Shown piece by piece: positions 4,773 to 63,064 of a stretch of 64,000 bases of DNA. The notes below the pieces were generated by a model. The model saw only the letters and a list, made by a program, of their open reading frames with translations, was not told the origin of the DNA and made no database searches. The position numbers and the translations under genes are program-made. How positions within the stretch are numbered: position 1 is the first letter of the stretch; each line of letters starts with the position of its first letter. Origin of the DNA: an uncultured Pseudomonadales bacterium (GTDB lineage Bacteria > Patescibacteriota > Microgenomatia > UBA1400 > UBA1396); assembly GCA_964519905.1 (NCBI GenBank), contig CAZFLN010000006.1, positions 4,058 to 68,057 of the forward strand, read 5' to 3'.

Positions 4773-4798
4773 CCTCCCCAATCGGGGAGGTTTTTTTT
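4773..4798 (+). terminator. intrinsic terminator hairpin plus T8
   Basis: cctcccc-aatc-ggggagg perfect 7-bp stem followed by tttttttt. Confidence 0.65.
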
Positions 4799-4814
4799 GT
4801 GCGGAAAGGAAAAA

Positions 4815-5891: not shown

Positions 5892-5913
5892 TGTCTGCTG
5901 ATATAATTTATAC

Positions 5914-6393
5914 ATGCACGAAAAAAAACTGAATCTTTACCGCTTTAGTCCCATAGAAAGTGAAGATCAGTTTTTTGAAGCTCTCGAATACATTGTTTCA
6001 GCAGCAGATCAGTTGGCACAAGAAGTTCTTGGAGAATCACTCCCCATCAATACTGTGAAAGTTTTTGCTCATTATTACGATGAGTATAAGTATCTGCTTG
6101 ATCTCGTTTCCAGAATGGGAAATCGTTCGCAGCTGAGCTCAGAGACGAGTTACTATGTTGAGATTGACAAGGAGATTTCAAGACAGGCGATTCAATATCT
6201 TGGAGTGAGGATTGTTGATCCATATCGATTACATGTTGGTTGTGCAGATTATGAGATTCAGAATTACCACGATTTGAAAGATGCTTTTTTGAAAAAAGGC
6301 TCATATGTTCGAAGTATAGAAAATGGAGAGATGCTTGAGCTTTGGCATCCAGACACTGACGTGCTTGGCTATGTTGTTCCACCTTTTGTTTGA
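5914..6393 (+). CDS. hypothetical protein
   Basis: 159-aa ORF; no motif recognised. Confidence 0.4.
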   Translation: MHEKKLNLYRFSPIESEDQFFEALEYIVSAADQLAQEVLGESLPINTVKVFAHYYDEYKYLLDLVSRMGNRSQLSSETSYYVEIDKEISRQAIQYLGVRIVDPYRLHVGCADYEIQNYHDLKDAFLKKGSYVRSIENGEMLELWHPDTDVLGYVVPPFV

Positions 6394-6426
6394 GAGAGAA
6401 TGTTAGGTGATTTGGTGAGGGCACTT

Positions 6427-6700
6427 ACCCAAAGAGTATTTCTCAGGTTTGCTTCACTCCGTTTGCAAACTTATAGTGCACGAACTCTCGGATTTGCATC
6501 AAACCATAGGGTTTCAACCACAAAAAAGGCCGCTTATGCGACCTTTTTTATTGCTGTGAACCACCATTGGGCTGGTTCAAACTTTTTCTCTGATGTTTTC
6601 CAGGCGTTGGAAGACTTCCAAGCCTTCATGCTGAGCCTTGGGGAGGCGTACTCGACCGCTCCGGCTCTAGCTTACTAACTACCCAAACCATAACCCACAC
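6427..6700. repeat. copy 1 of an approximately 270-bp conserved non-coding segment (hairpin plus terminator-like stem with T-run)
   Basis: about 85% identical over the first 100 bp to 13893-13990, with weaker homology continuing to about 6700; internal hairpin aggtttgc...gcaaactt; terminator-like aaaaaaggccgcttatgcgacctttttt at 6522-6549. Confidence 0.6.
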
Positions 6701-6756
6701 CACCTCTGTGAGAAATACCCTTAAAGAGGCGACATGCAATAGTAGGCTAACTCGAT

Positions 6757-8688
6757 CTACTGACTGACTGTAGGTTCTACAATTGCGTCTGTTTGGGTAG
6801 GTGGAGAAATTTCTCCAATTATCTCAGCCACAACTTTCATCAGTTTATCCATGTTCTTCTTGGTATTATTATCAAGTTCGTTTAGAGTTATCTTCTCATC
6901 TTCGACTGCATTAAAGAAACGAACAGCTAGTAATCCTTTAGATTCCTTCTTTTTAGGTTGTTTCATATATACAGAGTTTTCTTTAGAAATATCTTTCGGA
7001 TCAACTTCTGCTATCAATTTAGCGAAGTTATCCTTGCTAAATACATCTTCAATGCCTTTGCAACCAGGAATTACTCTGAAAATTTTGTCGAGCCGATCTT
7101 TTAGGTTGTTCCCAGGGTAAACCTCTTTTCTGACCTTTTCTATTGATTTTTTACCGCTATCTTCATCGTCAACAAGAATTCCATAAGTAATGCCCCAACC
7201 AAAAAGTAACCGCGCAAGCTGAGGAACAGTGGTTGTTCCATTTGCTGGTAGCAAGTGGACATTCTTGATACCCTTCAGCTTGAAAAATGCTTGTAAATAA
7301 TAACAAACGCTTACTTCTTCAACAATGATGTTGTTCGTTCTGTCTATAACGTTTTGATTGGCAAAACTACTGCCCATACAGTCAAATATAGGTGTTAGAG
7401 TGTCTGAAGATAGCGCTCCTAATTCGTGTGCACTGAATACCATTGTGTTGGCCAACTCAGACAGACTATATTCGTCAGCCGAAATCTCTCTCTGAGCTGC
7501 AATGATTCGATACAACTTTGTCAAATCAAGTAAGTGGTGAGTATGGGTGGTGTAAATTACCTGAACGTTTTTCTTCAAGGTTTCAAAAACTCTAAGCACG
7601 TCCTCTTGGGCTTTGGCATGAAGACTACCCGCAGGTTCATCAATGAGTAAAATTAAATCTCTCTTTTCTTCGCTTCTAACAGAATTCGCTTTAAGTTGCA
7701 AATAGAAGGACAAGAACCATTGCAGTCCTTTACTTCTTTGTTCTGGAGAAAATTGCGTCCCATTTTCAACTACCCAAAAGCTGAGGTATGACTCGCCAAT
7801 ACGCTCGGTTTCTTCTTTACCGTGTCGGTGAAAAGTTACTTGAATCTCAATTTCGTCACGTTTGCCAATCTTCTGTGACCAAAACTGTCGAAAATCAGCT
7901 GTAAATGTTGTGTTTTTTCTTGTTAACTGATTATTTCGCTGCCTGTCGCCTAATTGTTCTAATTGGTCGACACTAATTCCCATAATTTCAAGTAAGTTAA
8001 GTACCCCATGCAATCCTTTTGCTTTTGGTTTTTTATTTGTGATGTCGGCAACATCCATTTTGTCTGGCAACAGACTTTCAAAATCAATAAATTTTTGAAA
8101 TTCCGGCAATGATGCAATCACTCTATCCATAAAACCCTTTGCATCAAGCGGCGATACTTGTGGTTCGGGCGAAGGCGCAGGGGTTGTCTCTGGCACGAGG
8201 CTGGGAGTGGATGCTTCTACTGTTTCACCATTGGCAGTTGGTTCAGGAGATTTCGGTAATTCTGGTGGTGCTGGCGGAGCAAATAGAGTATCTATGTCTA
8301 AAAAATTGATGGAAACATTGTTTTTTGTTGGTGCTGTCCAGGTTCTTGTAAGAGATATTTTGTTGTCTGCTTCTTTTATCTTTGCTTTTAATCCACGAGG
8401 TAATTCTCCATCTTCAAAATTTTCGTCAAACCAAGCTTTCTGTACTCTAAATACACAGGTAATCTCTGGGTAGCTGTCATCCCTAAGCGCATCCGGATTA
8501 AGTTTGCCAGTGGAAAAGATTTCTAACGCCTCAAGGATTGATGTTTTCCCTGATTCATTTTGTCCTATGATCGCAGTGATATTATCTATTGGGAAATTAA
8601 AAAACCCAGTATCCTGGATTGACTTAAAGTTCGTTATCTTACAGGAGATGAGCTGCATTCTCATATACCACCCCATTTCTTTTGTCAT
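6757..8688 (-). CDS. OLD-family ATP-dependent nuclease (AAA/ABC ATPase N-terminus plus Toprim C-terminus)
   Basis: Walker A GQNESGKTSILEAL; LLIDEPAGSLH Walker B/D-loop region; C-terminal IIVEEVS and GILVDDEDSGKK (Toprim E and DxD); start ambiguous (Met at 8688/8676/8664/8658). Confidence 0.75.
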   Translation of the reverse strand: MTKEMGWYMRMQLISCKITNFKSIQDTGFFNFPIDNITAIIGQNESGKTSILEALEIFSTGKLNPDALRDDSYPEITCVFRVQKAWFDENFEDGELPRGLKAKIKEADNKISLTRTWTAPTKNNVSINFLDIDTLFAPPAPPELPKSPEPTANGETVEASTPSLVPETTPAPSPEPQVSPLDAKGFMDRVIASLPEFQKFIDFESLLPDKMDVADITNKKPKAKGLHGVLNLLEIMGISVDQLEQLGDRQRNNQLTRKNTTFTADFRQFWSQKIGKRDEIEIQVTFHRHGKEETERIGESYLSFWVVENGTQFSPEQRSKGLQWFLSFYLQLKANSVRSEEKRDLILLIDEPAGSLHAKAQEDVLRVFETLKKNVQVIYTTHTHHLLDLTKLYRIIAAQREISADEYSLSELANTMVFSAHELGALSSDTLTPIFDCMGSSFANQNVIDRTNNIIVEEVSVCYYLQAFFKLKGIKNVHLLPANGTTTVPQLARLLFGWGITYGILVDDEDSGKKSIEKVRKEVYPGNNLKDRLDKIFRVIPGCKGIEDVFSKDNFAKLIAEVDPKDISKENSVYMKQPKKKESKGLLAVRFFNAVEDEKITLNELDNNTKKNMDKLMKVVAEIIGEISPPTQTDAIVEPTVSQ

Positions 8689-8810
8689 TTACTAATCTGG
8701 GCAGGTCACCATGAGAGATGTACCAATGAGTATAGCATTTTCGGCAGATATACCAATGACTCAAATTAGATCAAGTCAGCCGTTTTTGAAGCATTCCAAG
8801 AGGTCAAAAA

Positions 8811-11513
8811 TCAGCTTATCTCGACGAAACTTGATATTGGGCCCTTAAATACCACACCCGGCAACTGCTCAAAGTGTTTTTTGCCACACGCGATCTTCAT
8901 GAGCTCAGAAGGTCGTAGTTCTTGGTTTTTACTCTTTGTTTCTGCGACGAAGTAAATCTTGGTCTCGTTTTCTAGTATAAATGCCCAGTCAGGGTTATAT
9001 GAGCCAAGAGGAGTTTCGATTTTGAACCAACGCGGCAGTTTGAAGTAAAATTTTACATCAGGATTGCGCTCCAATTCCCCGGCGAAGTTTCTTTCTGGTT
9101 CGGAGTTGTTATCAATAAGAACATGATCGTAAAGCGTTTTTGTCTGATCTTGCACCTCTACCATGCTATTGAGATAACCCCAAAGCTCTTCGTTCTCAAA
9201 ACGCGCCATTTCCCACGCTTCCGACTCCAATTTTTCGTACTTAATACCCTCTACCATCAACTCATGCAGAACATTGATCAAACGCTTTGAAGCTTGATCT
9301 AAAAACTGTTGAGGATTTTTAAGTATTTTGCCAGCAACTTGAGCAGTATTCAAAATAGTGAGAAGTGTTTGCTTTGTTAATCTCGTGCGAGATTGTAAGT
9401 AACTCAAAACATCGGGCACTAGAACTTGCGCAGCGTTGAGGCGTTTCTCACCAGCACGTCGTACCGCTGAGCTCACCCCCTTTTTGTTCATCTCAATGTT
9501 CACGCTTACGACTCTAATGCGAGGGCTTGTTACTTCAATTGATTGAAGTTCTCTAACAGCCCGGTGAACAAGCTCATCTGTGTCATACTCCACGTTATAG
9601 CGGGTGCGATGTTTGATCTTTTCCCAGAGAGCTTGAAATTGTGGGTCAAGGTTATACCCTTTCTTAAGTTGAACACGTCGTTTTTTCTTGGCATTACTGA
9701 TACGTCCAGAAAAGTCGACGCCACATTCTTCCTGAATCTCGTTCTGTAGACCACGAGCGAAGTCATCATAGTGTTCATTAGCAACAACTGTTAGAACAGC
9801 AATGTTTTGATCGGCAACACGTTCTCCCTGTTGGTTAACTGGCAAACGCAGGCCACGACCAATCTCTTGTCGCTTCTTAATATCAGAGCTTGTTTCATTA
9901 AGAGTACAAATTTGGAAAACATTGGGACTATCCCAACCTTCGCGTAAGGTGGAGTGAGAGAAAATAAACTTAAGCGGTGTAGAGAGCGATAGAAGCCGCT
10001 CTTTATCTCTCATGATTAACTCATAGGTATCATCATCTGCCTTAGTTGTCCCGGTTGTGTCCTTGTAATGGCCACTTTTGTCTCTGGAGAAATAGCCATC
10101 ATGCAACGCACTGATAGAATTGTCTTCTTGGCGTAATGAAGCATACTTTGGATTTTGAATCAGTTCTTGATAAAGTTCCTCGAACCAAACAGCATACTTC
10201 CCGGAAGTTATTGTATTGCCTTGATATTGGCGATAATTGTCTACGCGGTCAATGAAAAAGAGTGAAAGTACTTTAATACCAAGTGGCAACAAAGAGAGTT
10301 CTTTTTCGAGGTGATTGGCAATAGTTTGCTTGATTTGGGTTTTAATCAAATCCTCGGTATAACCACCAGTCACTTGCCCGACATAAATCGTTTGTCCATT
10401 GGAAAAGCGAACATACTCGGAAAGAGTATCAATATCGTCAACCACAAAGCCACGGTATGCCTCTCGTTCTCCAGAAAGACTATATAAGTCGCTCTCTACT
10501 TTCACCGATACTGTCTTTTTTTGTACGCCGGTTGGTGTTTGGACATCTATAGCAAGTTTGGCAGAAACGGTACTTCCTTTGCTGCCTACACTGTGCAATT
10601 CAAGATATGCCTGGTTATAGCTTTCTTCTTGAATGACCGAATCAACCTCAATACGTTTTACGAGACCTAAGTCGTAGGCATCAACCGGAGTAAGTTTGTA
10701 AATAAGATTATAGTTATTGCGATGTGTGGCACTGTAGCGCAGGGTACATAAAGGATTCAGGTTTGAAATAGCTTTTTTAGCTTTCTTGGTCTCCATTGAT
10801 TGGGGTTCATCTACGATCACTATTGGATTGGTAGCTTTAATGTATTCAATTGGAGTACCCCAGTCACTATTTCGGTAAAGAATGTTACCGGAATCTTCAG
10901 AATCACGGATAAACGATTGGATGTTCATCACCATGATTTGTAATGAGTTGGCTTTAGCAAAGTTTTTTGTTTGTACGCGATTTTTTGATTCATAGACGTA
11001 AAAATCATGTTTTGGCCGGTCGTAAATAGTGGCAAAATGCTCATCAGTAATTTCTAAGTTTTTAATCACGCCTTCTTTAATGGCTATGCTCGGAACGACG
11101 ATAATGAATTTTTTGAAGCCATAGGCTTTGTGTAGTTCATAAATTGTACGCAAATATACGTAGGTCTTTCCTGTACCAGTTTCCATTTCAAGCGAGAAGT
11201 TAAGCCCATTCTTTAAACTAATAGAATCTGCTTCTCCCGGGAGCATTGATCCAACAAGTCCAGGAGTAAAAAATCCCTCAGATAAAGGAAGTTTGTACTT
11301 CGTTTGTACTTGTTTGGTGTTATCAAAAATTTGCGAATGTTCAAGAACTAGCTTGTTTGATGTGACCAGTTCAAAAAGATCAGCTTGGCCCGAAGATAAT
11401 TCAATATCATTTTCCTGCGTGCTTTCAGTCAATGGTTGACCAGTAAAGAGTTCTACCACTGAGCTAATGGCATCCAATTGATATTGTTGGTTTGGGTCAA
11501 ACTGTAATTTCAT
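8811..11513 (-). CDS. res: Type III restriction enzyme Res subunit (SF2 helicase plus PD-(D/E)xK nuclease)
   Basis: MKLQFDPNQQYQLDAI N-terminus typical of Type III Res; TGTGKT Walker A; VIVDEPQ motif II; C-terminal endonuclease region. Confidence 0.85.
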   Translation of the reverse strand: MKLQFDPNQQYQLDAISSVVELFTGQPLTESTQENDIELSSGQADLFELVTSNKLVLEHSQIFDNTKQVQTKYKLPLSEGFFTPGLVGSMLPGEADSISLKNGLNFSLEMETGTGKTYVYLRTIYELHKAYGFKKFIIVVPSIAIKEGVIKNLEITDEHFATIYDRPKHDFYVYESKNRVQTKNFAKANSLQIMVMNIQSFIRDSEDSGNILYRNSDWGTPIEYIKATNPIVIVDEPQSMETKKAKKAISNLNPLCTLRYSATHRNNYNLIYKLTPVDAYDLGLVKRIEVDSVIQEESYNQAYLELHSVGSKGSTVSAKLAIDVQTPTGVQKKTVSVKVESDLYSLSGEREAYRGFVVDDIDTLSEYVRFSNGQTIYVGQVTGGYTEDLIKTQIKQTIANHLEKELSLLPLGIKVLSLFFIDRVDNYRQYQGNTITSGKYAVWFEELYQELIQNPKYASLRQEDNSISALHDGYFSRDKSGHYKDTTGTTKADDDTYELIMRDKERLLSLSTPLKFIFSHSTLREGWDSPNVFQICTLNETSSDIKKRQEIGRGLRLPVNQQGERVADQNIAVLTVVANEHYDDFARGLQNEIQEECGVDFSGRISNAKKKRRVQLKKGYNLDPQFQALWEKIKHRTRYNVEYDTDELVHRAVRELQSIEVTSPRIRVVSVNIEMNKKGVSSAVRRAGEKRLNAAQVLVPDVLSYLQSRTRLTKQTLLTILNTAQVAGKILKNPQQFLDQASKRLINVLHELMVEGIKYEKLESEAWEMARFENEELWGYLNSMVEVQDQTKTLYDHVLIDNNSEPERNFAGELERNPDVKFYFKLPRWFKIETPLGSYNPDWAFILENETKIYFVAETKSKNQELRPSELMKIACGKKHFEQLPGVVFKGPISSFVEIS

Positions 11514-11518
11514 ATTTG

Positions 11519-13492
11519 TTACACTACCTTGAAGTCAATATCTGCTCGTTCAAGATTGAGAATAGTGTTTGTTTTTAGATCGTCATTATTCGCAAAAACG
11601 CGTTCTAAAAAGATAACCTTTGCAGGTTTTCCTCGTTCGAGAAAATCGATAAAATCTCTGGTAACTGTCCCTTTCAGGCAAACAACCAACTTATTATTTC
11701 CAACAACGAAATATGTCACGCCGGCTTGCTCTGATCGTTTAACAGGTTCAGTGAGTTCGAGGCCAGATTTAAGTATGAGTTCGTACAAGAGATTGCTCTG
11801 GTTAGCATCTGGGCTGGTGTTTTCTACTGAGAGTTTAAGTTGTTGAGTAAGTTGCATTGGATTAACAACAGATTGATTCCAGACTTCGAAGTTACTCGCT
11901 TTGAGTCTAAAAAACTTGACACCGACCTGAGATGCTATTTTTCTAATTCTTTCAATAGATATCTCAGAAATGGTTCTGTACCCCAAACGAAAAGCTTCTG
12001 AGTTTTCATCTATTTTTTCTGGAAGTTGAACCATAATAAAATTTCTATCTTGGCCATCTTTTTCATTTAGTTCTATTAAGGCGTGTGCCGTTGTGGCAGA
12101 CCCAGCAAAGAAGTCCATAACTAAGTCATTCTTACCCGATCCGATACTAATCAGATAGCTGATAAGGTCTTTAGGTTTTGGATAATCAAAAATAATTCCG
12201 TTTTTCTCCAACTCAGAGCGCATTTTCTCTGTTGTTCCAAAGTTCCTTAATACGGACAGGATATTGCGAGCTTTTTCCCTCTCTCTTCTATAATAAAGAA
12301 CACCTTTCTCAGAAAGAAAGAATGACAATCTATCACCGTTATCCATTATCGGGTTACAATTGTTTTCAATAAATTGTTTTAGTTTGTTTACATTAGCCCA
12401 ACCACTAAACAATTTGCACGGCGCAAGTAACTTGCTATTTTTTACAGTGAGTTTACCAATTCTTACTGGGTATGATGCTGACCACTTTTCAGTAATTTGC
12501 CTTGAAATATAGCCAAGCTTCTTCACATCACTGAAATAACCCTCAGGCAGATCAGAGCTTTCTAAACTAATTTCATCTATTGAACATGGGAAACCTATTG
12601 GTAACTCAATCTCGCTTGGTGGATTGGCGGGACCATTTTTTGTAATTGAATTTTCAGCATATCCCTTCCACAAATTACTATCTTTTCTTGTATTAGGATC
12701 AACAACTTGTTCCAATTTAGCCCGGTTGCTATTCTTAGCATAAAGAATGATGTACTCATGGTTTATTTTAACGTCCAGTTGATTGTCAGTATGTCCGTCA
12801 GTGTTCCAGACAAACTGTGTAATAAAGTTTTCTTCCCCAAATATCTCGTCCATTATTATTCTTAGATTGTGGACTTCATGATCATCCATGCTAATAAATA
12901 CCAGTCCGTCTTGTCGAAGCAAATTTCTGGCCAAAAATAATCGGGGATACATCATATTCAGCCAGTCAGAGTGGTAATGCCCGTTATCGCGAGTGTTACG
13001 TCGTAGGGCAGTGTCTTTTAAGAGATCGCCGTTGTCATTGCGTTGGCCAGATTCAGCTTCATAGGTTGTTTTATCTTGCTTGAAATTGTCATTATAAATA
13101 AAATCATTACCGGTGTTATATGGGGGATCAATATAAATCATCTTAATCTTGCCATAATAAGAACGCTGCAATATACGCAAAACTTCTAGGTTGTCACCTT
13201 CTATGAAAAGGTTTTTTGTGGTATCAAAGTTGACTGATTCCTGGGGAAGAGGGGCTAAAGTAGCACTGGTAGTTTTTTGAATTTCCCGGAAAACATTAGA
13301 CTTTCCCGCCCAATTCAATCCATATCTTTCTGTGCCACTGCTTACTTGTTCTCCCAGGGTTTGCTTGAGCTTATCCGGATCAATTTTACCCTCACTGAAT
13401 ACTTCTGGGAATTGTTCCTTCAGTTGTTGGAGTAATTCCTCTTGAGGATTAATTGATTTACCATTCATCTTTGGAGTGTTCATATCACTCAT
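11519..13492 (-). CDS. mod: Type III R-M Mod subunit (N6-adenine DNA methyltransferase)
   Basis: IYIDPPYNTGNDF (DPPY) catalytic motif and conserved EQFPEVF N-terminal region; ORF extends to 13525, start chosen at MSDMNTPK. Confidence 0.85.
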   Translation of the reverse strand: MSDMNTPKMNGKSINPQEELLQQLKEQFPEVFSEGKIDPDKLKQTLGEQVSSGTERYGLNWAGKSNVFREIQKTTSATLAPLPQESVNFDTTKNLFIEGDNLEVLRILQRSYYGKIKMIYIDPPYNTGNDFIYNDNFKQDKTTYEAESGQRNDNGDLLKDTALRRNTRDNGHYHSDWLNMMYPRLFLARNLLRQDGLVFISMDDHEVHNLRIIMDEIFGEENFITQFVWNTDGHTDNQLDVKINHEYIILYAKNSNRAKLEQVVDPNTRKDSNLWKGYAENSITKNGPANPPSEIELPIGFPCSIDEISLESSDLPEGYFSDVKKLGYISRQITEKWSASYPVRIGKLTVKNSKLLAPCKLFSGWANVNKLKQFIENNCNPIMDNGDRLSFFLSEKGVLYYRREREKARNILSVLRNFGTTEKMRSELEKNGIIFDYPKPKDLISYLISIGSGKNDLVMDFFAGSATTAHALIELNEKDGQDRNFIMVQLPEKIDENSEAFRLGYRTISEISIERIRKIASQVGVKFFRLKASNFEVWNQSVVNPMQLTQQLKLSVENTSPDANQSNLLYELILKSGLELTEPVKRSEQAGVTYFVVGNNKLVVCLKGTVTRDFIDFLERGKPAKVIFLERVFANNDDLKTNTILNLERADIDFKVV

Positions 13493-13591
13493 TCTAACAA
13501 CGAACGGCCTGACGTGAAAGCGCAATATGTGTCAAAGTGATATACTTCATAACTTCTTCAAAGCTTTTTAAGCTATAAGTGCAGTTTTTCA

Positions 13592-13614
13592 AATCCTAAC
13601 AATCTAATAGGATT
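13592..13614. other. 7-bp stem hairpin (aatccta...taggatt)
   Basis: inverted repeat seen upstream of the mod start. Confidence 0.3.
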
Positions 13615-13740
13615 GGTTGTAGACATAATCAAGATTTAATCATTATTTCCTTTTTAAGTAAGCGCTTGTTTGAGATATAACGAGCGGATAAGTTAGTTAT
13701 GACCTAATCCCAGTTTTTCGAAACCGGGTATGGTCAAAAA

Positions 13741-13783
13741 ACCTGAAAGATAAACAACCCTCGCTGAGGAGTATCTTTCAGGT
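13741..13783. other. 12-bp perfect inverted repeat (acctgaaagata...tatctttcaggt) with 19-nt loop
   Basis: seen directly; lies between the mod gene and the att repeat. Confidence 0.4.
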
Positions 13784-13873
13784 CATGTCAGGAAACTGGC
13801 ATGCGTGGCAATACGGTACTCGGCGGGGGCTTTTTGCCACTCCCAAACGAGTCGCCTCGAACCTTACGATACT

Positions 13874-13892
13874 TGTGACCCCACGGAGATTC
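13874..13892. repeat. attL: 19-bp direct repeat identical to the tRNA-Glu 3' end
   Basis: tgtgaccccacggagattc is identical to 24009-24027; flanking bases differ. Confidence 0.8.
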
Positions 13893-14145
13893 ACCCCAAG
13901 AGTATTTCTCAGGTTTGCTTCACTCCGTTTGCAAACTTGAAGTGCACGAACTCGCGACTTCGTATCAAACCATGAGATTTCAGCTACAAAAATAGTCGCT
14001 CAGGCGACTTTTTTTGTACCTGTGACCCAAAGGGTTTGGGATTGGAACCAGATTCTTCGTGATCTGGTCGACCTGTTCGACACCTTCCGCCAAGACGTAA
14101 TGCTACCTGATGTTAAGTACTCCGTCTAGGGAATAGAACCGGTGT
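13893..14145. repeat. copy 2 of the approximately 270-bp conserved non-coding segment with intrinsic terminator
   Basis: homologous to 6427-6700; perfect terminator agtcgc-tcag-gcgact plus T7 at 13984-14006. Confidence 0.6.
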
Positions 14146-14149
14146 AATA

Positions 14150-17100
14150 CTATCCCCATTTAGTAGCATGGAGCTCTGCCTCTTGATCTTCTCTGACGGC
14201 TTCACGGGCATAAGAATCAGCGATAGCTTTCAGAATCGAAGCTGTTATTGGCCAGTCAGGTGCTACATTTTCGCTCATCTCCTGATATTTTTCGGCAAGA
14301 GATCTTTCTTGAGTTCCACCATCATACGGACCACGTGTGGTAACGCCTCGGTTATTGTAAACGTAGCTTTGGATGTGCCGATTAATTACGCTGTTGTCGA
14401 GTTCTTCTATGATCTTTCTTGCCGCTGTGTGTGGCCAGCAACCATCAGTATCATATGGCGTCTTTGCTAGCACGCTTGCTAATTCCAAGTCGCAACCGGT
14501 TGTGAGACTCTGCTCGGCACAAGATTTTCTGGCAGTTTCAACCCAAGTAGATAGCTCCTTCGCGTCAAGAGCCCCTTCTTCATTTGTTCCAGGAAATCCT
14601 TCCCAAGAATCAAGTACGTTTTTTGCATTTCTCGCCAAGTTACTGGATTGATCAGAATTAAGACCCGCATGTTTCGGGTTGGCCTTCCTATCGTCCCTTT
14701 TGTAAACCATGCCGACAAGGTCACAAAAGAATGCCGGATCTTTTTCGAGCAGCTTGTGAATCGAGAAGGATGTTCTTTCGTTGTCCCTCATTCCTCGGAA
14801 AAGCGACGCGCAAGGCCATTCCAGCTTAGCAATCTCTTCATCCGTGAGTTCTTTGCGCTCTTGCAGCTGCCTGAAAACGTTGGATAGGTAATATTCGGTC
14901 ATGCTGTCTGCATGGCGATCTTCAGAGGGAATGGCAAGTAAATCGAGAATAATTTGTCGGAGCAGATTGCTTGGCAATGAAACAACATGATCGCCGGCGA
15001 TTTCCAATGCTGCCTGAGGTCGTTTGGCGAGAAGAAACTTTTCAGCGGCAATTTGCGCGTTCTCGTTCGAGTGACCTGGCGTATAACCTCTGGCATGTTT
15101 CCAGTATTCTGCTTCAAGATCAATTCCAGCTTTTTCGACTTTCAACCAAGTATCTGGCCCTTCAGGGAGTCCAAGATATAGTTGCGCTGCGATCTCTGGT
15201 GTGTAAATGCCCTCATCTTTCAGTTTTTGGATAGCCGCTTCAACCCAAGCCACACCTTCTTTTTCTGTTCTTCCCCAAGAATAGGAAGAGATAAGCAGAT
15301 GGTTTTTTGCGTGTTTGGCAAAGAAGAAGAGTACTCGATCGTCCTCTTCTTCATTCTTGATGGCTTTTCCCAGCGCTTGTCCCAAAACTCCAACGTATGA
15401 AATACCTGAAGAAAACTTGACGATCTCTTCAAGTGGTACTTTGTCTAGTACTTCTCTGGCAGCTTTTCCTCTTTGTACCGCAACTTCTTTGTCACCATCG
15501 GTCCGATCTCTACGACTCACCTCAGGCAAGTGTGGCCACGGATTATCTAGCAACCAACCAACTCGATCGAGTACATACTCTGGAGTAAATTTGGTGAGTA
15601 GCTTTTTGAGCGGCATGAGGTTCTTCCGCTCGGGCTTTTCGCCGTAACTACTAAGCCAATTCATTGCTTCCCGAATATGTGAACAGAGGAGTTTTACTTC
15701 ATCAGGTGAGAGTTGGTCTTTGTCCATTTGGGTGAGAGTATTCATGAGAGCGGTTTGAATGTAATCTGGAAGGCGAGTAAATTCGTCCATAGCGTCAAGG
15801 ATGTTTACTCTTGTGCACGCCAAACTCTCAAGTCTATTGACCAATTCTTTCTGATATTCCTGTGGATTTGTTTCCGGATCAAAGCCAGACCTCAAGATGC
15901 CGTAGTCCCGCCATCTGAAACGATACGCTTCAGTGAAGTGGCCCCCTGAATGATAAGACTTAGTAAAATTCCAAACGAGCTTTGCATCTTTTGATATGAG
16001 CCTGTCAATCTCTCGTATTCTTTCTGGTGCCGCTGCATAAGTTTGAGGCCAGATGGGCATGAAGATATCTGTCAAACTGTTTGCCGGTCGATTGCTGTAT
16101 CTTCCCCCTGTGTCAATTGCGGCCATTCCTCTGAGAATTTCCACTGCACGAGAGAAATATGTAGAACTCCATGCAAGCGCTTCTAGTGCCCAAAGCAACC
16201 CACTGTGATTGCAGTCTCCAAACGGGCCGCCGTCATCGTCTTTCATCAAGTCAGAAAAAACTTGAGGATGCTTGGCAAGTTGTTTGCGTACCACTTCCAG
16301 AAAAACGTCGGGCGCTGCTTCTGCTAACAGTGGGGAAATATCCTTGAGTGAGGCCCAATGCTCCATTGTGGTCGCGGCCTCCAAAACCTCAGCTACGGTT
16401 TGATTGATCGTATCTTGAAGAGAAACGAGATTTGTCGCTCGGTCTCCCAATACTGAAACCATTGCCAGAGAGCCACAAAGTCCTTCCCTCAGCCAGTCGG
16501 AATGTAGTGGGGCTTTACCATAAACGGCTGCAGCCCATCGCTGATCAGCGGGTAGCTCATATTTAGGATCTTTTTTCAGCAAGACATCCTTCACGACCTG
16601 CTGATACCTCTGAAATATCGCCTCGTCGACATAGCGAGCAATGAGAAACCATGTGTCAATCGGTGACTTCAATACCCAAACATTTCCAACCTTGAGCAAT
16701 GGCGGATCTGCCACTGTTAACAGGTTCCCCAGCTCTGAAAGATAATCCGTATACTTTTTACTAGCGATATATTCAACGATTTGTTGGTCTCCATCTTTCT
16801 TTTCATTCCATGCACCAATGAAAAGAACGGGTAAAAGCAAGTGAGTGTTTTGAGGATTCACCCAAGGTGGATCTGTTATAGCTGGTGAAGGCGACATACG
16901 ACGTCTCAAAACTGGTAGACTCCTGCCGGAATCTCTGGAAAGTTTTCGGGCCTCAACCTCTCCAACACCGATTTTTTTAAGATTCTCCTGAATAGTGCCA
17001 ATAAGTGGTCGAGGAAGGCGCCCAGCATCTCGCGTACTTGAAACGTTTGTTCCTGTACCCAGGAAGACATGATGGCCCTTTCTTACGGCCAAACCTACTA

Positions 17101-17932
17101 AATCATTGCACTCGATCGTTACGGCCAAGATGAGCGAGGTTTGGTATGTATCAAGAATATGTCGTAGATCAGCGGGGTTCTCGACGTAAAGACTTTTGGA
17201 GAGTGAGCGCAATCTCTCGTCATCTGGTAGTCTGGAGAAAGAACTGTATAGAAAAGCAAACGGTTCGTCAGCAGAATCACCTTGAAGCGACAGAATAGCA
17301 GGTGGCTTGTTGAGCCAGCCATGAACAATCTCTACATGATTGTCTCTTCCACCCAGCACAACTTCAGCCGAAAGTGGTGGGTTTGTTGATTCCGACCATT
17401 CTTCCCAAAAGCTCTCCAAGCTCCGTATTCCGCCTGCGCTCGCCTTTCCCAGGCGTTTGGCAAGCCATAAACCCACGGCAGGCGCCTGATCGAGCCAGAG
17501 TGCAAGGTCATCGGCATCGATAGCCCTTACTGATTTCCAATGGTTGGATGCAGCCTTGCTGGTTGCCCACTCATGTCGTTTTGGCCAACGTCGTGGCGTT
17601 ACAAAAACGAAAGATGTATCTTTGGGTGTCAGAGCCAACGAGTCAGCGACCCTTTTCGTGTAATCATCGTCAGCTTTTTTCTTGGGCGACTCCTTTGTGC
17701 CCATTTCCCAACCAGAAACGCCATCAGGGAGATAGGGGGATGATGATGCAATGTTCAACCTGCCGTCCCATCCGGGAGTTGCCACACTGTCTTGTTCAGG
17801 GAAAGAAACTTCACTAACAGAATTAGCTGTTGCCAAAACAAGGCGTCGTAGGAGTTGGGGCAAAAAAGAGGCGCAATCTCTTTGATTACTTTCACTCCAA
17901 GACTTGATATCACCGGCACTTATCCATTGCAT
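14150..17932 (-). CDS. 1260-aa protein of unknown function (island cargo)
   Basis: long uninterrupted ORF; no Walker A/B, no HxH, no obvious catalytic signature; weak D...ExxxK pattern (GWDGRL...WEMGTK) in the first 90 aa. Confidence 0.6.
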   Translation of the reverse strand: MQWISAGDIKSWSESNQRDCASFLPQLLRRLVLATANSVSEVSFPEQDSVATPGWDGRLNIASSSPYLPDGVSGWEMGTKESPKKKADDDYTKRVADSLALTPKDTSFVFVTPRRWPKRHEWATSKAASNHWKSVRAIDADDLALWLDQAPAVGLWLAKRLGKASAGGIRSLESFWEEWSESTNPPLSAEVVLGGRDNHVEIVHGWLNKPPAILSLQGDSADEPFAFLYSSFSRLPDDERLRSLSKSLYVENPADLRHILDTYQTSLILAVTIECNDLVGLAVRKGHHVFLGTGTNVSSTRDAGRLPRPLIGTIQENLKKIGVGEVEARKLSRDSGRSLPVLRRRMSPSPAITDPPWVNPQNTHLLLPVLFIGAWNEKKDGDQQIVEYIASKKYTDYLSELGNLLTVADPPLLKVGNVWVLKSPIDTWFLIARYVDEAIFQRYQQVVKDVLLKKDPKYELPADQRWAAAVYGKAPLHSDWLREGLCGSLAMVSVLGDRATNLVSLQDTINQTVAEVLEAATTMEHWASLKDISPLLAEAAPDVFLEVVRKQLAKHPQVFSDLMKDDDGGPFGDCNHSGLLWALEALAWSSTYFSRAVEILRGMAAIDTGGRYSNRPANSLTDIFMPIWPQTYAAAPERIREIDRLISKDAKLVWNFTKSYHSGGHFTEAYRFRWRDYGILRSGFDPETNPQEYQKELVNRLESLACTRVNILDAMDEFTRLPDYIQTALMNTLTQMDKDQLSPDEVKLLCSHIREAMNWLSSYGEKPERKNLMPLKKLLTKFTPEYVLDRVGWLLDNPWPHLPEVSRRDRTDGDKEVAVQRGKAAREVLDKVPLEEIVKFSSGISYVGVLGQALGKAIKNEEEDDRVLFFFAKHAKNHLLISSYSWGRTEKEGVAWVEAAIQKLKDEGIYTPEIAAQLYLGLPEGPDTWLKVEKAGIDLEAEYWKHARGYTPGHSNENAQIAAEKFLLAKRPQAALEIAGDHVVSLPSNLLRQIILDLLAIPSEDRHADSMTEYYLSNVFRQLQERKELTDEEIAKLEWPCASLFRGMRDNERTSFSIHKLLEKDPAFFCDLVGMVYKRDDRKANPKHAGLNSDQSSNLARNAKNVLDSWEGFPGTNEEGALDAKELSTWVETARKSCAEQSLTTGCDLELASVLAKTPYDTDGCWPHTAARKIIEELDNSVINRHIQSYVYNNRGVTTRGPYDGGTQERSLAEKYQEMSENVAPDWPITASILKAIADSYAREAVREDQEAELHATKWG

Positions 17933-18003
17933 ACGGCATCATTCTAGTCCCAATTTTCCCCGAAGTGAATCAGTAATGTTGTGCATCAAAACTGTGTAAA
18001 ATC

Positions 18004-18381
18004 TTGAGTATGCGCGTAAAACGAGGGAGACCATCCCTTCTCACGGAATCTGTCCAAAATCAATTAAAACAAGCGTTTCTGGTCGGCGCAACCGACGACG
18101 AAGCTTGTTTAGTGGTGGGAATTGCCCCAAGCACACTCTATAAATTCCAGGAGAAAAACCCGTCATTTTCGGAGCAAAAACGACTATGGAAGCGTTCTCC
18201 AGTTTTTCGCGCCAAGGCGACGATCGTCCGCAATCTCGACAATGTCGATGTGGCCAAGTGGTACTTGGAACGTAGAGCCAAAGATGAGTTTTCGACAAAA
18301 CACGAGTTGGAAGGGATTTCCGACAATACACCAATCCAAGTAATATTTAGGGGAAAAGATGAAGACAAGGCAAACGTTTAG
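18004..18381 (+). CDS. HTH protein resembling phage terminase small subunit
   Basis: KRGRPSLLTE...GATDDEACLVVGIAPSTLYKFQEKNPSFSEQ matches the conserved N-terminal pattern of P27-type TerS and related HTH proteins. Confidence 0.5.
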   Translation: MSMRVKRGRPSLLTESVQNQLKQAFLVGATDDEACLVVGIAPSTLYKFQEKNPSFSEQKRLWKRSPVFRAKATIVRNLDNVDVAKWYLERRAKDEFSTKHELEGISDNTPIQVIFRGKDEDKANV

Positions 18382-18635
18382 AAATTCACAAGATCATTGA
18401 GCGTTTTGCCCAAGGCCTTGGCGATCTTCCACAAGACAAAAACGGTTGGATGATACTTCCCGGCTTCAAGATGAGCGACGTATGCGGAATGAAGCTTGGC
18501 TCTACCGCCCAGCTCTTCCTGTGAGATACCTTTGCTTTTCCGAGCGTCACGAATATTACCAGCTAATCTTTGGGTGAATTCTTTACGGACTTTGGTGTTG
18601 TCTCCGTCTGTTTCAGGGAGATTTATCGTATTCAT
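18378..18635 (-). CDS. XRE-family HTH transcriptional regulator
   Basis: KGISQEELGGRAKLHSAYVAHLEAGKYHPTVFVLWKIAKALGKTLNDL is a classic Cro/C1-type HTH; start taken at MNTINLP (ORF extends to 18767). Confidence 0.7.
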   Translation of the reverse strand: MNTINLPETDGDNTKVRKEFTQRLAGNIRDARKSKGISQEELGGRAKLHSAYVAHLEAGKYHPTVFVLWKIAKALGKTLNDLVNF

Positions 18636-18708
18636 TTCAACAATTATTTTCCTGGTGATTAGAGGCTTACGCCATGGCGTAGTCATCAAGTTAGTGATAT
18701 GATCTCTG

Positions 18709-19590
18709 GTGATGAAGAAGACCAAAAAAGCATTCGCCCACGGTGTGAATTGGAAATCTCGGCCCATTCAGTTACGGGCAGGTTTCTTAATTCTTGTCCT
18801 CTCGCTCATTCTCTACAAAGCAGTTCCCGGAGTGGTTCGTGCCTACGACGTTCAAAAGGTAAACCAAGCCATTCAGGAAGCCGAGACATTGGCAAAAGCA
18901 GGACAAACCGAGGAAGCTGTATTGGTACTCCAATCTACGTCCTCCCGATACATGACCCAAGAACAGGCGGAGAAAATCACCTCTCAGTTTGGTGAGTTGG
19001 CAAACCCACCGGCCAAAGGTATGAGCTTCGATGATTTCGATCAAATGTTGAAAGATCGAGGAGAACCAGGAATCTTAGGCTCACCTGCGCCAAAACCGTC
19101 ACAGGTACCAAAGCAAATACCAACGCCCTTACCCACAGCGCTTCCAACCGTAAACGCCAATCCACAAGTGCGCTGCTATTACGACAGTCGCTGCGGTGGT
19201 ACGAAGATCACAACCAAAGACGAATGCCTGAATACTACCTGTTGCTATGACGGTTCAACTTGGAACATTAAATCGAAGACGGATTGCCAGAAACAATCGG
19301 ACGAGGCGGCTCAAAAACAACTCGACGCCTGGAATACATCGCAATCCCAGATGCAGGCCGAAATTGAAGCCCTACAGAAGGCCACGGAAACCATTACTCA
19401 ACAAAACGCTCAAACCCAAGCTGAGCTTCTCGAGGCATGTCGACAGCAAGCACAAAAAACCTATGCGCAACCGGCACAAGGGAGTCAAACTTCCACAACT
19501 GGTTACGTTGTTGGTGAATCACCGGAGCAGCGACAAAAGCTTAATCAAGCTATGCAGCGTTGCCTGGATCTGTATGGAGGAGGACAATGA
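18709..19590 (+). CDS. membrane-anchored, Cys-rich, Q-rich secreted protein
   Basis: N-terminal TM (FLILVLSLILY); Pro-rich linker; 8 Cys in 60 aa; divergent from the XRE gene. Confidence 0.45.
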   Translation: MMKKTKKAFAHGVNWKSRPIQLRAGFLILVLSLILYKAVPGVVRAYDVQKVNQAIQEAETLAKAGQTEEAVLVLQSTSSRYMTQEQAEKITSQFGELANPPAKGMSFDDFDQMLKDRGEPGILGSPAPKPSQVPKQIPTPLPTALPTVNANPQVRCYYDSRCGGTKITTKDECLNTTCCYDGSTWNIKSKTDCQKQSDEAAQKQLDAWNTSQSQMQAEIEALQKATETITQQNAQTQAELLEACRQQAQKTYAQPAQGSQTSTTGYVVGESPEQRQKLNQAMQRCLDLYGGGQ

Positions 19591-19826
19591 AAAAGTCGCA
19601 CCTCCTATTCATCGCAGTTGCTCTGTTGGCGTATTATCTGGGATATCGTTCAGGAATCGGCAACCAGGTGGCTCGATATGGCGATACTGGGTTGCCAAAG
19701 AATTGCCGGGCGCTAATTGCCACCAACATCAGTGGTTTTAAGTATAGCCAGTACACCGCAGAGGAAGCGCTTTACTCTATCGACCGTAACTGTGGTCCAG
19801 CTGGGCTTATTTGGAATGAACGATGA
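19587..19826 (+). CDS. small membrane/secreted protein
   Basis: GGAGGAGG RBS then ATG overlapping the upstream stop (ATGA); signal-like MKKSHLLFIAVALLAYYLG. Confidence 0.4.
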   Translation: MKKSHLLFIAVALLAYYLGYRSGIGNQVARYGDTGLPKNCRALIATNISGFKYSQYTAEEALYSIDRNCGPAGLIWNER

Positions 19827-19831
19827 TGCAT

Positions 19832-20596
19832 TCAAGCTATTTTGCCACCGACTTCTTTCCACAATTCTTGTAAACCATTTTTTACTTCTTCTGTCGTTTC
19901 CACTTCATTTGACAAGAGTAAGGCAATTTTCAAACATGCTCCATAGGAAACCATGATGCCCATATGCAAATCCAACTCTGCATAACCGTCGAGTGTGATT
20001 TGTGCCAGGTGGCCAAGAATATCACTGGGTGATGTGTGATTTTTTCTATTACCAGCAATATATATCTTAAAAAGGGTTTGCATTTCGGTTTTAGGGATGA
20101 CTTTCTCCTGAACAAGCCAAGCTACTACTTGTTCCACGCTTTGGCCAGCCCAATTATGGCGGCCATTTTTCAACTTAGCCGGAATGGCATCATATGAGTC
20201 ATTGATCCTTTTTATTTCCTCTGGTTCGATTTCTACACCTGCTGACAGTAAAAAATCCATGTCTTCTTTTTGTTCTACTGCATCAAATTGGATGAATTGC
20301 CGTGAATACGCTTCTTTTCCCTTCTTTTCAATATAAAACATATAGACCATATCCTCTAAAATCCTTCTTGATAGGTCGAGAATAGAGCCGCTGTACACAG
20401 TGCGCAGAGAGGGATCTTCTTCTGCCAGATTGGCCAAAGTGATACTGGTCTGGAGAGTTAAATAATCCTTCCGAAATACCCCCTCAAGGACTCTTCCAAA
20501 GAGGGATTTATACGTGTTTGGTCCTGTTGCCAAGGGGTAGCTAATATCAAGTAGCTGGAGGGATTTTTTACGAAAATCGACTTGTGATTTTTCCAT
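19832..20596 (-). CDS. hypothetical protein
   Basis: 254-aa ORF; no motif recognised. Confidence 0.45.
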   Translation of the reverse strand: MEKSQVDFRKKSLQLLDISYPLATGPNTYKSLFGRVLEGVFRKDYLTLQTSITLANLAEEDPSLRTVYSGSILDLSRRILEDMVYMFYIEKKGKEAYSRQFIQFDAVEQKEDMDFLLSAGVEIEPEEIKRINDSYDAIPAKLKNGRHNWAGQSVEQVVAWLVQEKVIPKTEMQTLFKIYIAGNRKNHTSPSDILGHLAQITLDGYAELDLHMGIMVSYGACLKIALLLSNEVETTEEVKNGLQELWKEVGGKIA

Positions 20597-20640
20597 TGAG
20601 AGGATTATACTCCGGCGTACGGACAGTCAGGTTCAGATAT

Positions 20641-22128
20641 ATGGCAAATTATTGGAGCAACGAGCTTTTAGGAAGGTATGACCCGCAAGATGGTTGGCTT
20701 GGGATTGATTATCGACGGCACTTTCTAAATCCACACCAAACAATGATGACTTACATCCATGAACAAGCCCACGGCATACTTTGCAACGGTACTGAATATG
20801 GGCAGGCAACGAAGACGCTTCTACGATTTCTTCCGCATGCAACAGCAATGTCTGAGGAGCAACGCGCCGCCATCTTTAAGAAACTTCATGATTCACAGTT
20901 TTATGTTCAGGAGGCAGCAGCAACTCTTGCTCCAATTTTTGGGCTGAGAGATGCCAAAGGTCCGGCGGTTGCACGCAAATGGGCCAAAGACAATTTGCCA
21001 GATGATTACTACAACCGTGTTGAGGGGCTTTTTTTTGCGTTGGAATTTGGAGCAAGATACAGAGAACTATTCCTACAACAATCATCGCATTTAGCGATGC
21101 ATACGAAGATTCGTAAAGATGTTGTTGCTTACGATCTACTAAGAAACCCTGAACAATTTATCGACTATTTGTCCCAACCAGATAATATTCCTAGTGACAG
21201 GTTTCAAAAACTTACACAGGCATTTTGGGCTAAGCCCCATCTACCAACTCGCTCAGATGAAGAAGTAGCAAAGCATGCCAACCTACCCCTTTTCGAAATC
21301 TTGACCAAAGATGAAGTCGCAAACTTCCTCAACTATGTTGCAGAGTTTTGTGGACTACCAGTTCGAACTGATGCAACACGCATAAAAGATCCATTGACAC
21401 CAGAAGCTCACGTAAAAGAACTGGCAGAAAACGTTCTTATCGCGAATATGAATTTCAACTTACCTGACCGTGCTATGTGGCTTAAACAAACAGATGATTT
21501 GAAATTTATTTCTGACAAAGTTGATGCGGTTATTATCAACAGAGTCGATCCTTCATCCAACCTCGCTGATAATTTCAAGATTGTTATGGGGCGAGAAGCT
21601 GACCTTGGAATTATTACATTCCAAAAAACGGGCGAAGTATATTTAACAGGTTTGTCTGAAATGGAAGCATCAACAATCCTTAAGCAAGAGTTAAAAAATG
21701 CGACACTTATCACCAAGTGGGGGTTATATGAGCCCGGAAATGAAAACGTTTCTTTCTTCCCAAGTATCCGTCGACCAGATGTAGTTATTTACAACACACT
21801 TGGCGACATGCGCGTGTCAATGCAAAAGTATTTGGAGCAACATGACTGTGTTTGCTTCAATGCCCAAGCTTCTCCAGGAAGCCCGATACATACTTTTGTG
21901 ATCGTAGATCAGAAAGGTACTCTTCATATGTTGAACGCCATGGGAGTTCAACCGATAAACTCCTTTTTGTCTGATAACAAAGAACATCTGCATGTTGTTC
22001 AGCCAGATCAATCAACCGTTAATCCAGCCCACTACAACAATGTCCTTTCTGTTTGGAATGACTTGCCATGGGATGTCGATTGGTATGCCTCCATGCTTGA
22101 TGGTGAAAATGTAATTAATCGCACCTAA
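20641..22128 (+). CDS. HExxH-motif protein (possible metallopeptidase)
   Basis: YIHEQAHGI near the N-terminus; start at MANYWSN within ORF 20584..22128. Confidence 0.5.
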   Translation: MANYWSNELLGRYDPQDGWLGIDYRRHFLNPHQTMMTYIHEQAHGILCNGTEYGQATKTLLRFLPHATAMSEEQRAAIFKKLHDSQFYVQEAAATLAPIFGLRDAKGPAVARKWAKDNLPDDYYNRVEGLFFALEFGARYRELFLQQSSHLAMHTKIRKDVVAYDLLRNPEQFIDYLSQPDNIPSDRFQKLTQAFWAKPHLPTRSDEEVAKHANLPLFEILTKDEVANFLNYVAEFCGLPVRTDATRIKDPLTPEAHVKELAENVLIANMNFNLPDRAMWLKQTDDLKFISDKVDAVIINRVDPSSNLADNFKIVMGREADLGIITFQKTGEVYLTGLSEMEASTILKQELKNATLITKWGLYEPGNENVSFFPSIRRPDVVIYNTLGDMRVSMQKYLEQHDCVCFNAQASPGSPIHTFVIVDQKGTLHMLNAMGVQPINSFLSDNKEHLHVVQPDQSTVNPAHYNNVLSVWNDLPWDVDWYASMLDGENVINRT

Positions 22129-22288
22129 GTTACACTTGTAAGCAATTTTGGTAACAAAATCCTGATTCAGACCCCATTTATTCCAGCAGTTTTTGCGATA
22201 ATTTCTTGTGTTGACAGATCAATCAATTTGCTCGTTTTCATTCCAATTCACACACGGTGTAAATTGACGTATATATCAATCTTTTCTG

Positions 22289-22318
22289 TTGACACCAATG
22301 GTATGCGGATGGTTATAT
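22289..22318 (+). promoter_or_regulatory. sigma70-like promoter (TTGACA-18-TTATAT) for the small-ORF/recombinase operon
   Basis: ttgaca 22289-22294, 18-nt spacer, ttatat 22313-22318. Confidence 0.45.
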
Positions 22319-22337
22319 TCGGACTAGGAAATCTACC

Positions 22338-22496
22338 GTGACCATCGCAAAAGCAAGAAAATTACTGGGAAAATCGGCGGAGCTGCTGACTGATGAACAG
22401 GTGCAGCTCAAAATTGACGTGGCTGAGCAGCTGAAGGAGTTGTTCTTTGATTTTTTGCTCAAGAGTTTAAGACAGAAAAAGGCATACCAATCTTGA
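22338..22496 (+). CDS. 52-aa small protein (GTG start) upstream of the serine recombinase; homolog of 62859..63044
   Basis: AGGAAA 6 nt upstream of GTG; IAKARKLLGKSAELLTDEQVQLKIDVAEQLKEL aligns with IEKAQAILRKSKHSFSDDQTERLIDVMEKFSSAI. Confidence 0.4.
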   Translation: MTIAKARKLLGKSAELLTDEQVQLKIDVAEQLKELFFDFLLKSLRQKKAYQS

Positions 22497-22503
22497 GGAA
22501 ACT

Positions 22504-24048: not shown

Positions 24049-24083
24049 GAACCTGGCGTCCTAGGCCTCTAGACGATGGGGCC
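24011..24083 (-). tRNA. tRNA-Glu (anticodon CTC)
   Basis: reverse complement folds as GGCCCCA acceptor, GTCTAGAGGCCTAGGAC D-arm, CCAGG-TTCTCAT-CCTGG anticodon arm, CGGAG-TTCGAAT-CTCCG T-arm, discriminator A; CCA not encoded. Confidence 0.85.
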
Positions 24084-24238
24084 GCGTGTGGCGCGGGAGC
24101 AATTGCTCAGACCAGACAGGATTGAATTATATCGCATCAGAGAAGGAATGTGAATTCAGGCTTTTTCCAAGATTTGAGAATTTTTGCAAGCATTTTGTTT
24201 GATTCATTTGCGATAGTGCTGGAAACAAAAGGAGGCAC

Positions 24239-54198: not shown

Positions 54199-54226
54199 GC
54201 TGATTTTTTGCTTCTGTGCAAACAGA

Positions 54227-58877: not shown

Positions 58878-58881
58878 GTAT

Positions 58882-59247: not shown

Positions 59248-59294
59248 TGATTGAAATAGCCCTGTTGTGGTATATCAGATAAAATGAATACCAG

Positions 59295-63044: not shown

Positions 63045-63064
63045 CTATTATCTGAAGGTAAGAA

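Follow-up and report, generated by a model that had tools for sequence, protein, structure and literature searches.

Two copies of a short spacer at islands stacked beside tRNA-Glu(CTC) in a Patescibacteria contig

The stretch of DNA analyzed here, a window of 64,000 nt from contig CAZFLN010000006.1 (assembly GCA_964519905.1), carries a short intergenic segment in two copies between a hisC-like gene and tRNA-Glu(CTC). This segment is referred to as X (copies X_A and X_B) and the two genomic islands that accompany it as E1 and E2 (Table 1). Read from the left, the order is hisC, a 159-aa gene, X_A with a core-like octamer, E1, the recombination core with 11 nt of the tRNA, X_B, a further core, E2, and finally the core with the complete tRNA-Glu. 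Similarity of HisC placed the host in the Patescibacteria (Microgenomates-like), with the best matches being 53–58% identical. The GC content amounts to 39–42% in the block from 6 to 14 kb, compared with about 46% for 24–54 kb.

Table 1 Features of the locus, in window coordinates.
Feature	Positions	Strand	Remarks
hisC-like gene	4797-5891	+	
159-aa gene	5914-6393	+	
Copy A of the repeated spacer (X_A)	6427..6554		34 nt past the stop of the 159-aa gene
8-bp hairpin AGGTTTGC / GCAAACTT, 12-nt loop	6445..6472 (copy B 13911-13938)	+	Within the 44/45-identical 5' part
Bidirectional intrinsic terminator, copy A: A6, GGCCGC-TTAT-GCGACC, T6	6522..6549		Sequence reading
Core-like octamer TGTGAACC	6555..6562		7/8 match to TGTGACCC
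Possible decayed recombinase C-terminal tail remnant, P' arm of E1	6556..6678	+	Weak
Island E1, about 7.3 kb	6563..13873		39-42% GC vs 46% core genome; Pfam, PADLOC
OLD/AriA/GajA-like ATPase-nuclease	6757-8688	-	In E1
Type III Res	8811-11513	-	PADLOC REase_III, E=5e-286
Type III Mod	11519-13525	-	PADLOC MTase_III, E=9e-178
LOOT RNA (RF03000)	13701-13815	+	77.8 bits vs gathering score 46.4
19-nt fragment, tRNA-Glu 3' end (core TGTGACCC + 11 nt acceptor/T-arm), right junction of E1	13874..13892	-	
Copy B of the repeated spacer (X_B)	13893..14020		137-nt repeat; absent from E2 relatives L089, L103
Bidirectional intrinsic terminator, copy B: AGTCGC-TCAG-GCGACT between A-run and T-run	13987..14015		
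Recombination core TGTGACCC, attL of E2	14021..14028		Same octamer at attR 24009-24016 and in attP of L089
Detached last 35 recombinase codons (VTQRVWDWNQILRDLVDLFDTFRQDVMLPDVKYSV and stop), P' arm of E2	14022..14129	+	Tail HMM E=1e-22
Island E2, 9,988 bp	14029..24016		Colinear with L103
1260-aa protein	14150-17932	-	No Pfam domain; weak PADLOC match PD-Lambda-4_A, E=2.7e-4
Several small genes	18004-22128	both	
Large serine recombinase, integrated form	22504..24048	+	Resolvase, Recombinase, Zn_ribbon_recom (Pfam)
tRNA-Glu(CTC), integration target, B' arm	24010..24083	-	ARAGORN, Rfam; overlaps recombinase stop
Bacterial RNase P RNA class A	30431-30748	+	132.9 bits

The repeated spacer

Comparison of the two segments revealed a gapless direct repeat of 137 nt (6427–6563 versus 13893–14029) with 114/137 identical positions (83%; blastn E=1.5e-38). 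An initial annotation had described segments of about 270 nt sharing roughly 85% identity over their first 100 bp, with weaker homology continuing beyond. The identity was reproduced (87% over the first 100 nt), but the homologous stretch is only about 137 nt long, and past 6563/14029 the DNA similarity drops to chance level, with a local score of 16 compared with 14.3 ± 2.1 (reached by 494/2000 shuffles). The weaker continuation is real in copy B, where it corresponds to the detached 3' end of a recombinase gene, while after copy A it is borderline. Identity is distributed unevenly along the repeat, amounting to 44/45 in the first 45 nt and 70/92 thereafter (Fisher p=0.001).

Each copy is built from a spacer of ~95 nt, a bidirectional intrinsic terminator, 5 nt and an 8-nt core, and the homology between the copies stops exactly at this core (TGTGAACC in copy A, TGTGACCC in copy B), which matches the 3' end of tRNA-Glu(CTC). 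The hairpin aggtttgc...gcaaactt was found in both segments as described before; its 29-nt core is present in the window two times and no more, whereas 100 shuffles gave an expectation of 0, and as the stem is invariant between the copies it carries no covariation information. Terminators are likewise present in both segments, although they lie inside the segments as originally drawn and not at their ends. The terminator stem of copy A is completely paired on the minus strand alone, where a G.U pair replaces the C.A mismatch of the plus strand, and the stems of the two copies show one compensatory difference, G-C to A-T, in a comparison of only two sequences. Both segments indeed sit immediately 3' of a large minus-strand gene. 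An exact 19-nt direct repeat, TGTGACCCCACGGAGATTC, is located at 13874–13892 and 24009–24027, the latter being the 3' end of the tRNA gene, and the first of these occurrences directly abuts the first base of copy B. No such tRNA fragment precedes X_A, as 6408–6426 matches the 19-mer at only 6/19 positions. The idea that X itself starts with a decayed tRNA-Glu 3' end was tried and rejected (280/3000 and 718/3000 shuffles reached the scores).

Two rather different explanations had to be considered for the similarity as such. If X were a pseudogenised fragment of a duplicated coding sequence, the 92-aa open reading frame (ORF) annotated in the source record across copy A (6400–6678) could be its remainder. 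However, mismatches between the copies are spread over the codon phases as 6/9/8 without bias, the frame in question is interrupted by a stop codon in copy B, and none of the frames is open in copy A and copy B alike; the 92-aa ORF had no Pfam hit, and a search of 5.8 billion proteins returned only the query itself. We regard this explanation as barely credible and effectively refuted. The second explanation is that X represents a duplicated gene for a small or otherwise structured RNA on the plus strand, ending at the terminator, with its position at a junction being incidental or the gene being the integration target. A conserved sequence of roughly 100 nt with a Rho-independent terminator behind it, a 5' block of 45 nt with 98% identity, a G.U pair in the hairpin that is functional on the plus strand alone and full-length fold z-scores of -3.5 and -3.7 would all suit such a gene. 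These z-scores are owed to the terminator, however, and the signal disappears with its removal (plus strand, -1.64 and -1.05; minus strand, 0.16 and -1.45), leaving folds no better than those of shuffled sequences. A second stem of X differs between the copies and is not conserved.

Searches for relatives of X also speak against an RNA gene. No Rfam match was obtained over 5800–14400 even at E<=5, the neighboring LOOT RNA aside, and collections of genomes, metagenomes and viruses yielded no homologue, nor did the 5.8 billion proteins searched by way of the spurious ORF. An exact-pattern scan with the hairpin core, which misses copies diverged at any specified position, gave no match in genome contigs; the 41 viral and 11 metagenome matches were all due to chance, and the whole element was not recovered from these two collections by blastn/nhmmer. 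Neither nhmmer nor blastn detected a further copy in 103 fetched loci. No sigma-70-like promoter was called at the start of the repeat, where the homology begins abruptly at 6427/13893 without a shared promoter, and integration demonstrably targets the 3' end of the tRNA. A conserved structured RNA, which the initial annotation had offered as its alternative, is therefore highly unlikely. X likewise does not behave as a miniature inverted-repeat transposable element or a remnant of an insertion sequence, as there are only two copies, both at attachment (att) junctions, and no inverted repeat links the ends of X.

Island E2 and its recombinase

The right-hand island E2 carries the gene for the 1260-aa protein on the minus strand, small helix-turn-helix genes, genes for a DUF5677 protein and a 514-aa protein, and a large serine recombinase with the domains PF00239 (E=6.5e-31), PF07508 and PF13408. 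The last 11 codons of the recombinase gene (PRRFELRLPG and stop) are read off the antisense strand of tRNA-Glu. Joining 22504–24016 to 14029–14129 in silico yielded an ORF of 537 aa that aligned to the homologue P0002 over 531/531 residues with 81.7% identity. In agreement with this, the un-integrated relative L089, whose recombinase (P0002; 531 aa, 82% identical) is in the attP form, shows the uninterrupted succession of GAAAATGTCGAAAA, TGTGACCC and AAAGGGTGTGGG. In the window, its homology breaks off at 24016 and resumes at 14021, so that X_B is omitted. A full-length E2 was also found in a different host (L103), where it is colinear with window positions 14021 to 24084 (86.7% identity over 10,066 nt). 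Its left flank there is the 3' flank of a cation-ATPase gene, which is nothing like X, and its host flanks resemble those of L091.

As the restored 537-aa ORF, L089 and L103 all place the left boundary of E2 at the core at 14021, X_B lies outside the island. The repeated segments had been taken for island ends; they are instead host-side flanks of left junctions, since L089 and L103 begin at TGTGACCC and lack the segment. Copy B thus combines recombinase domains, a core shared with the right end, a reconstituted attP and the recurrence of the same island with a different flank. Judged from these comparisons at the sequence level, E2 is an island of 9,988 bp which a large serine recombinase with an attP-spanning ORF is predicted to move, and X_B is the predicted host-side (B) arm of its attL. 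Reconstruction of the empty site puts the start of the copy B terminator 5–6 nt beyond the tRNA-Glu 3' end, as read on the tRNA strand. The 19-nt tRNA repeat (13874–13892 and 24009–24027) was considered as the att site of E2, a choice by which copy B would form the terminus of the island, and was refuted by L089 and L103, in which the left end is at 14021.

The recombinase belongs to a larger group, for which about 120 close homologues (P0001–P0120, ~50% identity) were retrieved from Patescibacteria. In the integrated form, found in 82/120 of them, the protein ends in a tRNA-antisense peptide such as VTPRGIEPRLPG (acceptor/T-arm antisense), while 4/120 end in a conserved tail of ~35 aa with the pattern VTQ..PNQI..DL..LF.TF......YSV, corresponding to the attP form. 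The tRNA-antisense C-termini and the alternative ~35-aa tail therefore argue that the family integrates at tRNA 3' ends and carries attP within its own ORF. On integration, the C-terminal tail of ~35 aa would accordingly be exchanged for about 11 residues encoded by the antisense strand of tRNA-Glu. Such an ORF could act as a sensor or switch of the integration state, with the 35-aa tail existing in the excised form only. A profile hidden Markov model (HMM) of the tail also located attL sites beside a GTGACCC core in L090 (two sites), L091, L098 and L099. No relatives of the recombinase were found in viral contigs, and exact-protein look-up of the recombinase (P0001) and of the 205-aa protein right of the tRNA gave no record.

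Two further observations concern the cargo of E2 and the remainder of the window. The 1260-aa protein is kept in L103 (1651–5433, inside E2) and in L098 (889–4668, 75% nucleotide identity), where its gene sits outside the recombinase island, and it is a candidate defence gene. At the far end of the window, the block 54000–64000 has a GC content of 37–38% and is probably another island; it holds a second serine recombinase ORF (63062–64000, plus strand; family HMM E=8e-12) that runs past the window end.

Island E1 and the origin of two spacers

To the left of X_B, E1 is bounded by TGTGAACC at 6555–6562 and TGTGACCC at 13874–13881, and unrelated island DNA starts right after the core behind both X_A and X_B. 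E1 reads as an older island bounded by cores on both sides, as expected of an integrated element. In E1, a complete Type III restriction-modification pair is followed directly downstream by the OLD-like nuclease gene; all three genes are on the minus strand and may form a single operon. The initial annotation had proposed two related elements in tandem at tRNA-Glu, the older of which had lost its integrase and att site. Two islands are indeed stacked there, and the family HMM detected no recombinase remnant in the six-frame translation of E1; att, however, was kept, in the form of TGTGAACC after copy A and the 19-nt tRNA fragment at 13874–13892. A tail-like ORF following copy A scored 36 against the P0002 tail (reached by 3/2000 shuffles) and 34 against the first L090 tail (L090a; 0/2000) in pairwise Smith-Waterman alignments, while its scores summed over all tails were reached by 11/2000 shuffles.

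The LOOT RNA of E1 is divergent from the Type III mod gene, lies 58 nt from the tRNA-Glu 3' fragment and has no terminator of its own before that of copy B. It was absent from the 17 loci of the Candidate Phyla Radiation (CPR) that were scanned near other islands, and a literature search on LOOT returned nothing on its function.

Taken together, X_A and X_B are probably diverged copies of the ~128-nt tRNA-distal stretch that flanks the core of the tRNA-Glu(CTC) attachment site. X would originally have been the spacer and terminator downstream of tRNA-Glu, a role suggested by the stem of copy A, which pairs completely only on the tRNA strand, and its last ~20 nt may form the B half-site bound by the recombinase. 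Today it would terminate convergent transcripts, arriving on the plus strand from LOOT or the 159-aa gene and on the minus strand from the genes for the OLD-like nuclease or the 1260-aa protein. X_A would then be the host-side (B) arm of the left junction of E1, and the locus would comprise two docking sites, X_A with core and tRNA stub and X_B with core and tRNA, each occupied by one island. Serine integrases recombine only attP with attB, and a second attB is one way to reach a tandem array (PMC3783163); an arrangement with two docking sites fits this rule. The second copy of the docking site appears to be partial, comprising X and the first 19 nt of the tRNA 3' end, and might have arisen through a partial tandem duplication of 147 nt, from an old pair of tRNA-Glu genes of which the left one was truncated later, or by capture of an element circle with flanking DNA through homologous recombination in a 41-nt identical stretch. 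These three origins fit the data alike.

Related loci provided the context for this assignment. In relatives, a convergent tRNA-Glu follows within 45–400 nt after hisC, and in L047 an RNase P RNA is encoded about 6 kb further on, in the same synteny with hisC and tRNA-Glu as in the window. Given this adjacency, the whole of 5892–24009 is inserted relative to them, and the site is an insertion hotspot. Look-ups of the flanking proteins for a close relative returned no other strain. Homologues of the 159-aa protein were followed as a route to an empty site and abandoned, since their neighborhoods are unrelated. The only other contig with an identical 159-aa gene is L001 (Logan SRR16797981, 1687 nt), which stops at window position 6472. 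At this very position the 41-nt identical stretch gives way to the first difference between the two copies, and a contig end is to be expected there should the sample contain both of them and the assembly be broken as a result. L099, which carries a related island, has a decayed tRNA-Glu(CTC)-like pseudogene (5404–5475) at a distance of 48 nt to the left of the island's attL core. The pseudogene shows a T-arm and an anticodon arm that differ from the functional copy in a compensatory manner, and the layout mirrors the succession of tRNA fragment, spacer and core in the window. L090 contains a tandem array with two detached recombinase tails (4855–4962 and 6505–6610). Flank duplication was seen in none of the arrays L090, L091, L098 and L099. 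In L091 (2735–5090), an extra gene for a 751-aa protein is located between the host ATPase gene and attL and is missing at the same locus in L103 (1498–1522).

Several observations weigh against a duplicated host flank. An empty site, with X followed directly by tRNA-Glu, was recovered from no strain, only distant relatives having been found, and as none was observed directly, the host origin of X rests on its exclusion from E2. In the distant relatives, the spacer between hisC and tRNA-Glu is only 45–55 nt long and contains no homologue of X, while the 159-aa gene is an accessory gene occurring in unrelated contexts, so that X_A could belong to a still older insertion. The tandem array of L090 lacks a flank duplication, which means that stacking does not require a duplicated docking site. 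As for E1, the tail remnant after copy A fails the profile HMM (0.5 bits, reached by 175/2000 shuffles), its right junction (ACGATACT directly before the core) is unlike the P arm of the family (GGTGAAAA before the core), and the LOOT RNA sits at the position where the recombinase gene is expected. Finally, the 44/45 identity of the 5' part is unexplained by neutral divergence; conversion or crossing-over may have left this tract, or the site may be under constraint.

Some of these points would be accounted for if X were borne by the elements themselves, in the form of a tRNA-proximal terminator cassette that earlier islands had left as their right-end module. E1 would then end in X_B, and X_A would close an insertion older still, with which the 159-aa gene had arrived, every new island having entered between the X of the preceding one and the tRNA. 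The short hisC–tRNA-Glu spacers of the distant relatives, the accessory nature of the 159-aa gene and the existence of arrays without flank duplication all favor this explanation, as does the consideration that the DNA left of a core is whatever adjoined the tRNA downstream when the insertion occurred. Against it, the core with 11 nt of tRNA (13874–13892) separates X_B from the body of E1 and reads as a junction, whereas X_A has no tRNA fragment before it. Moreover, E2, whose ends are known from three independent copies (the window, L089 and L103), does not carry X, and the 103 fetched loci hold no additional one. We therefore consider an origin of X from the elements unlikely and retain the duplicated flank of the attachment site.

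A bolder version of the duplicated flank would make the 147-nt unit (X and 19 nt of the tRNA-Glu 3' end) a duplicated 'landing pad' for a second serine-recombinase island, which we rate as rather unlikely. The near-perfect 5' block of 45 nt might in that case be a conserved functional site and not a conversion tract. If true, a second island could dock while the first one stays, circumventing the restriction to attP and attB, and defence islands could stack in a tiny CPR genome.

Significance and relation to known systems

The repeat is an ordinary feature of genomic islands; it constitutes neither a new kind of feature nor a new RNA. Its analysis explains the repetition and fixes the boundaries of two stacked defence islands at the hisC/tRNA-Glu hotspot of a Patescibacteria genome. 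It also describes a large CPR family of serine recombinases directed at tRNA 3' ends, in which integration rearranges the recombinase gene itself. This is helpful for the annotation of CPR mobile elements and for the mining of recombinases whose natural att sites are defined. This attP-spanning, tRNA-targeting family and the precisely delimited defence islands are the more notable by-products of the study.

The individual parts have counterparts in known systems. Bidirectional Rho-independent terminators are common between convergent genes, and X shares with them the succession of A-run, GC hairpin and T-run between convergent units, here duplicated along with an attachment site. P4-like and similar islands in tRNA genes employ tyrosine integrases and accrete in tandem at a single tRNA. 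The locus resembles them in the integration at a tRNA 3' end, in the displaced tRNA 3' fragment that forms a direct repeat at the far junction and in an array with decayed older members; it differs in its serine-family recombinase, in a core of 8 nt in place of 15–50 nt and in that no replacement 3' end of the tRNA is supplied. Integrase genes that are split on integration are known from the SSV1-type archaeal integrases. In mycobacteriophage BPs, a gene spanning attP underlies integration-dependent immunity (PMC4557955). As in these systems, attP lies within a coding sequence and integration swaps or removes a C-terminus, whereas the protein affected here is a serine recombinase, of which only the last ~35 residues would be exchanged for about 11 tRNA-encoded ones. 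With the serine integrases of phiC31 and Bxb1 (PMC3783163), the E2 recombinase shares the domain architecture and the formation of hybrid attL and attR sites through a short central core, but its target class is a tRNA gene, its attP lies inside the integrase ORF and its sites are predicted from sequence.

A further likeness concerns the composite islands formed by staphylococcal cassette chromosome mec (SCCmec) and ACME (arginine catabolic mobile element), which are arranged in tandem at the 3' end of orfX/rlmH in staphylococci (PMC7029739). Both systems have a serine recombinase with Resolvase, Recombinase and Zn-ribbon domains, enter a conserved housekeeping gene at its 3' end and leave its function intact, stack islands at one site with short repeated att sequences between them, and include older islands devoid of their own recombinase together with accessory or defence cargo. 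In the present case, however, a tRNA gene serves as target, attP lies within the recombinase ORF, the host belongs to the Patescibacteria (CPR), and the inter-island repeat consists of a 128-nt flank and 19 nt of the target and not of the core alone.

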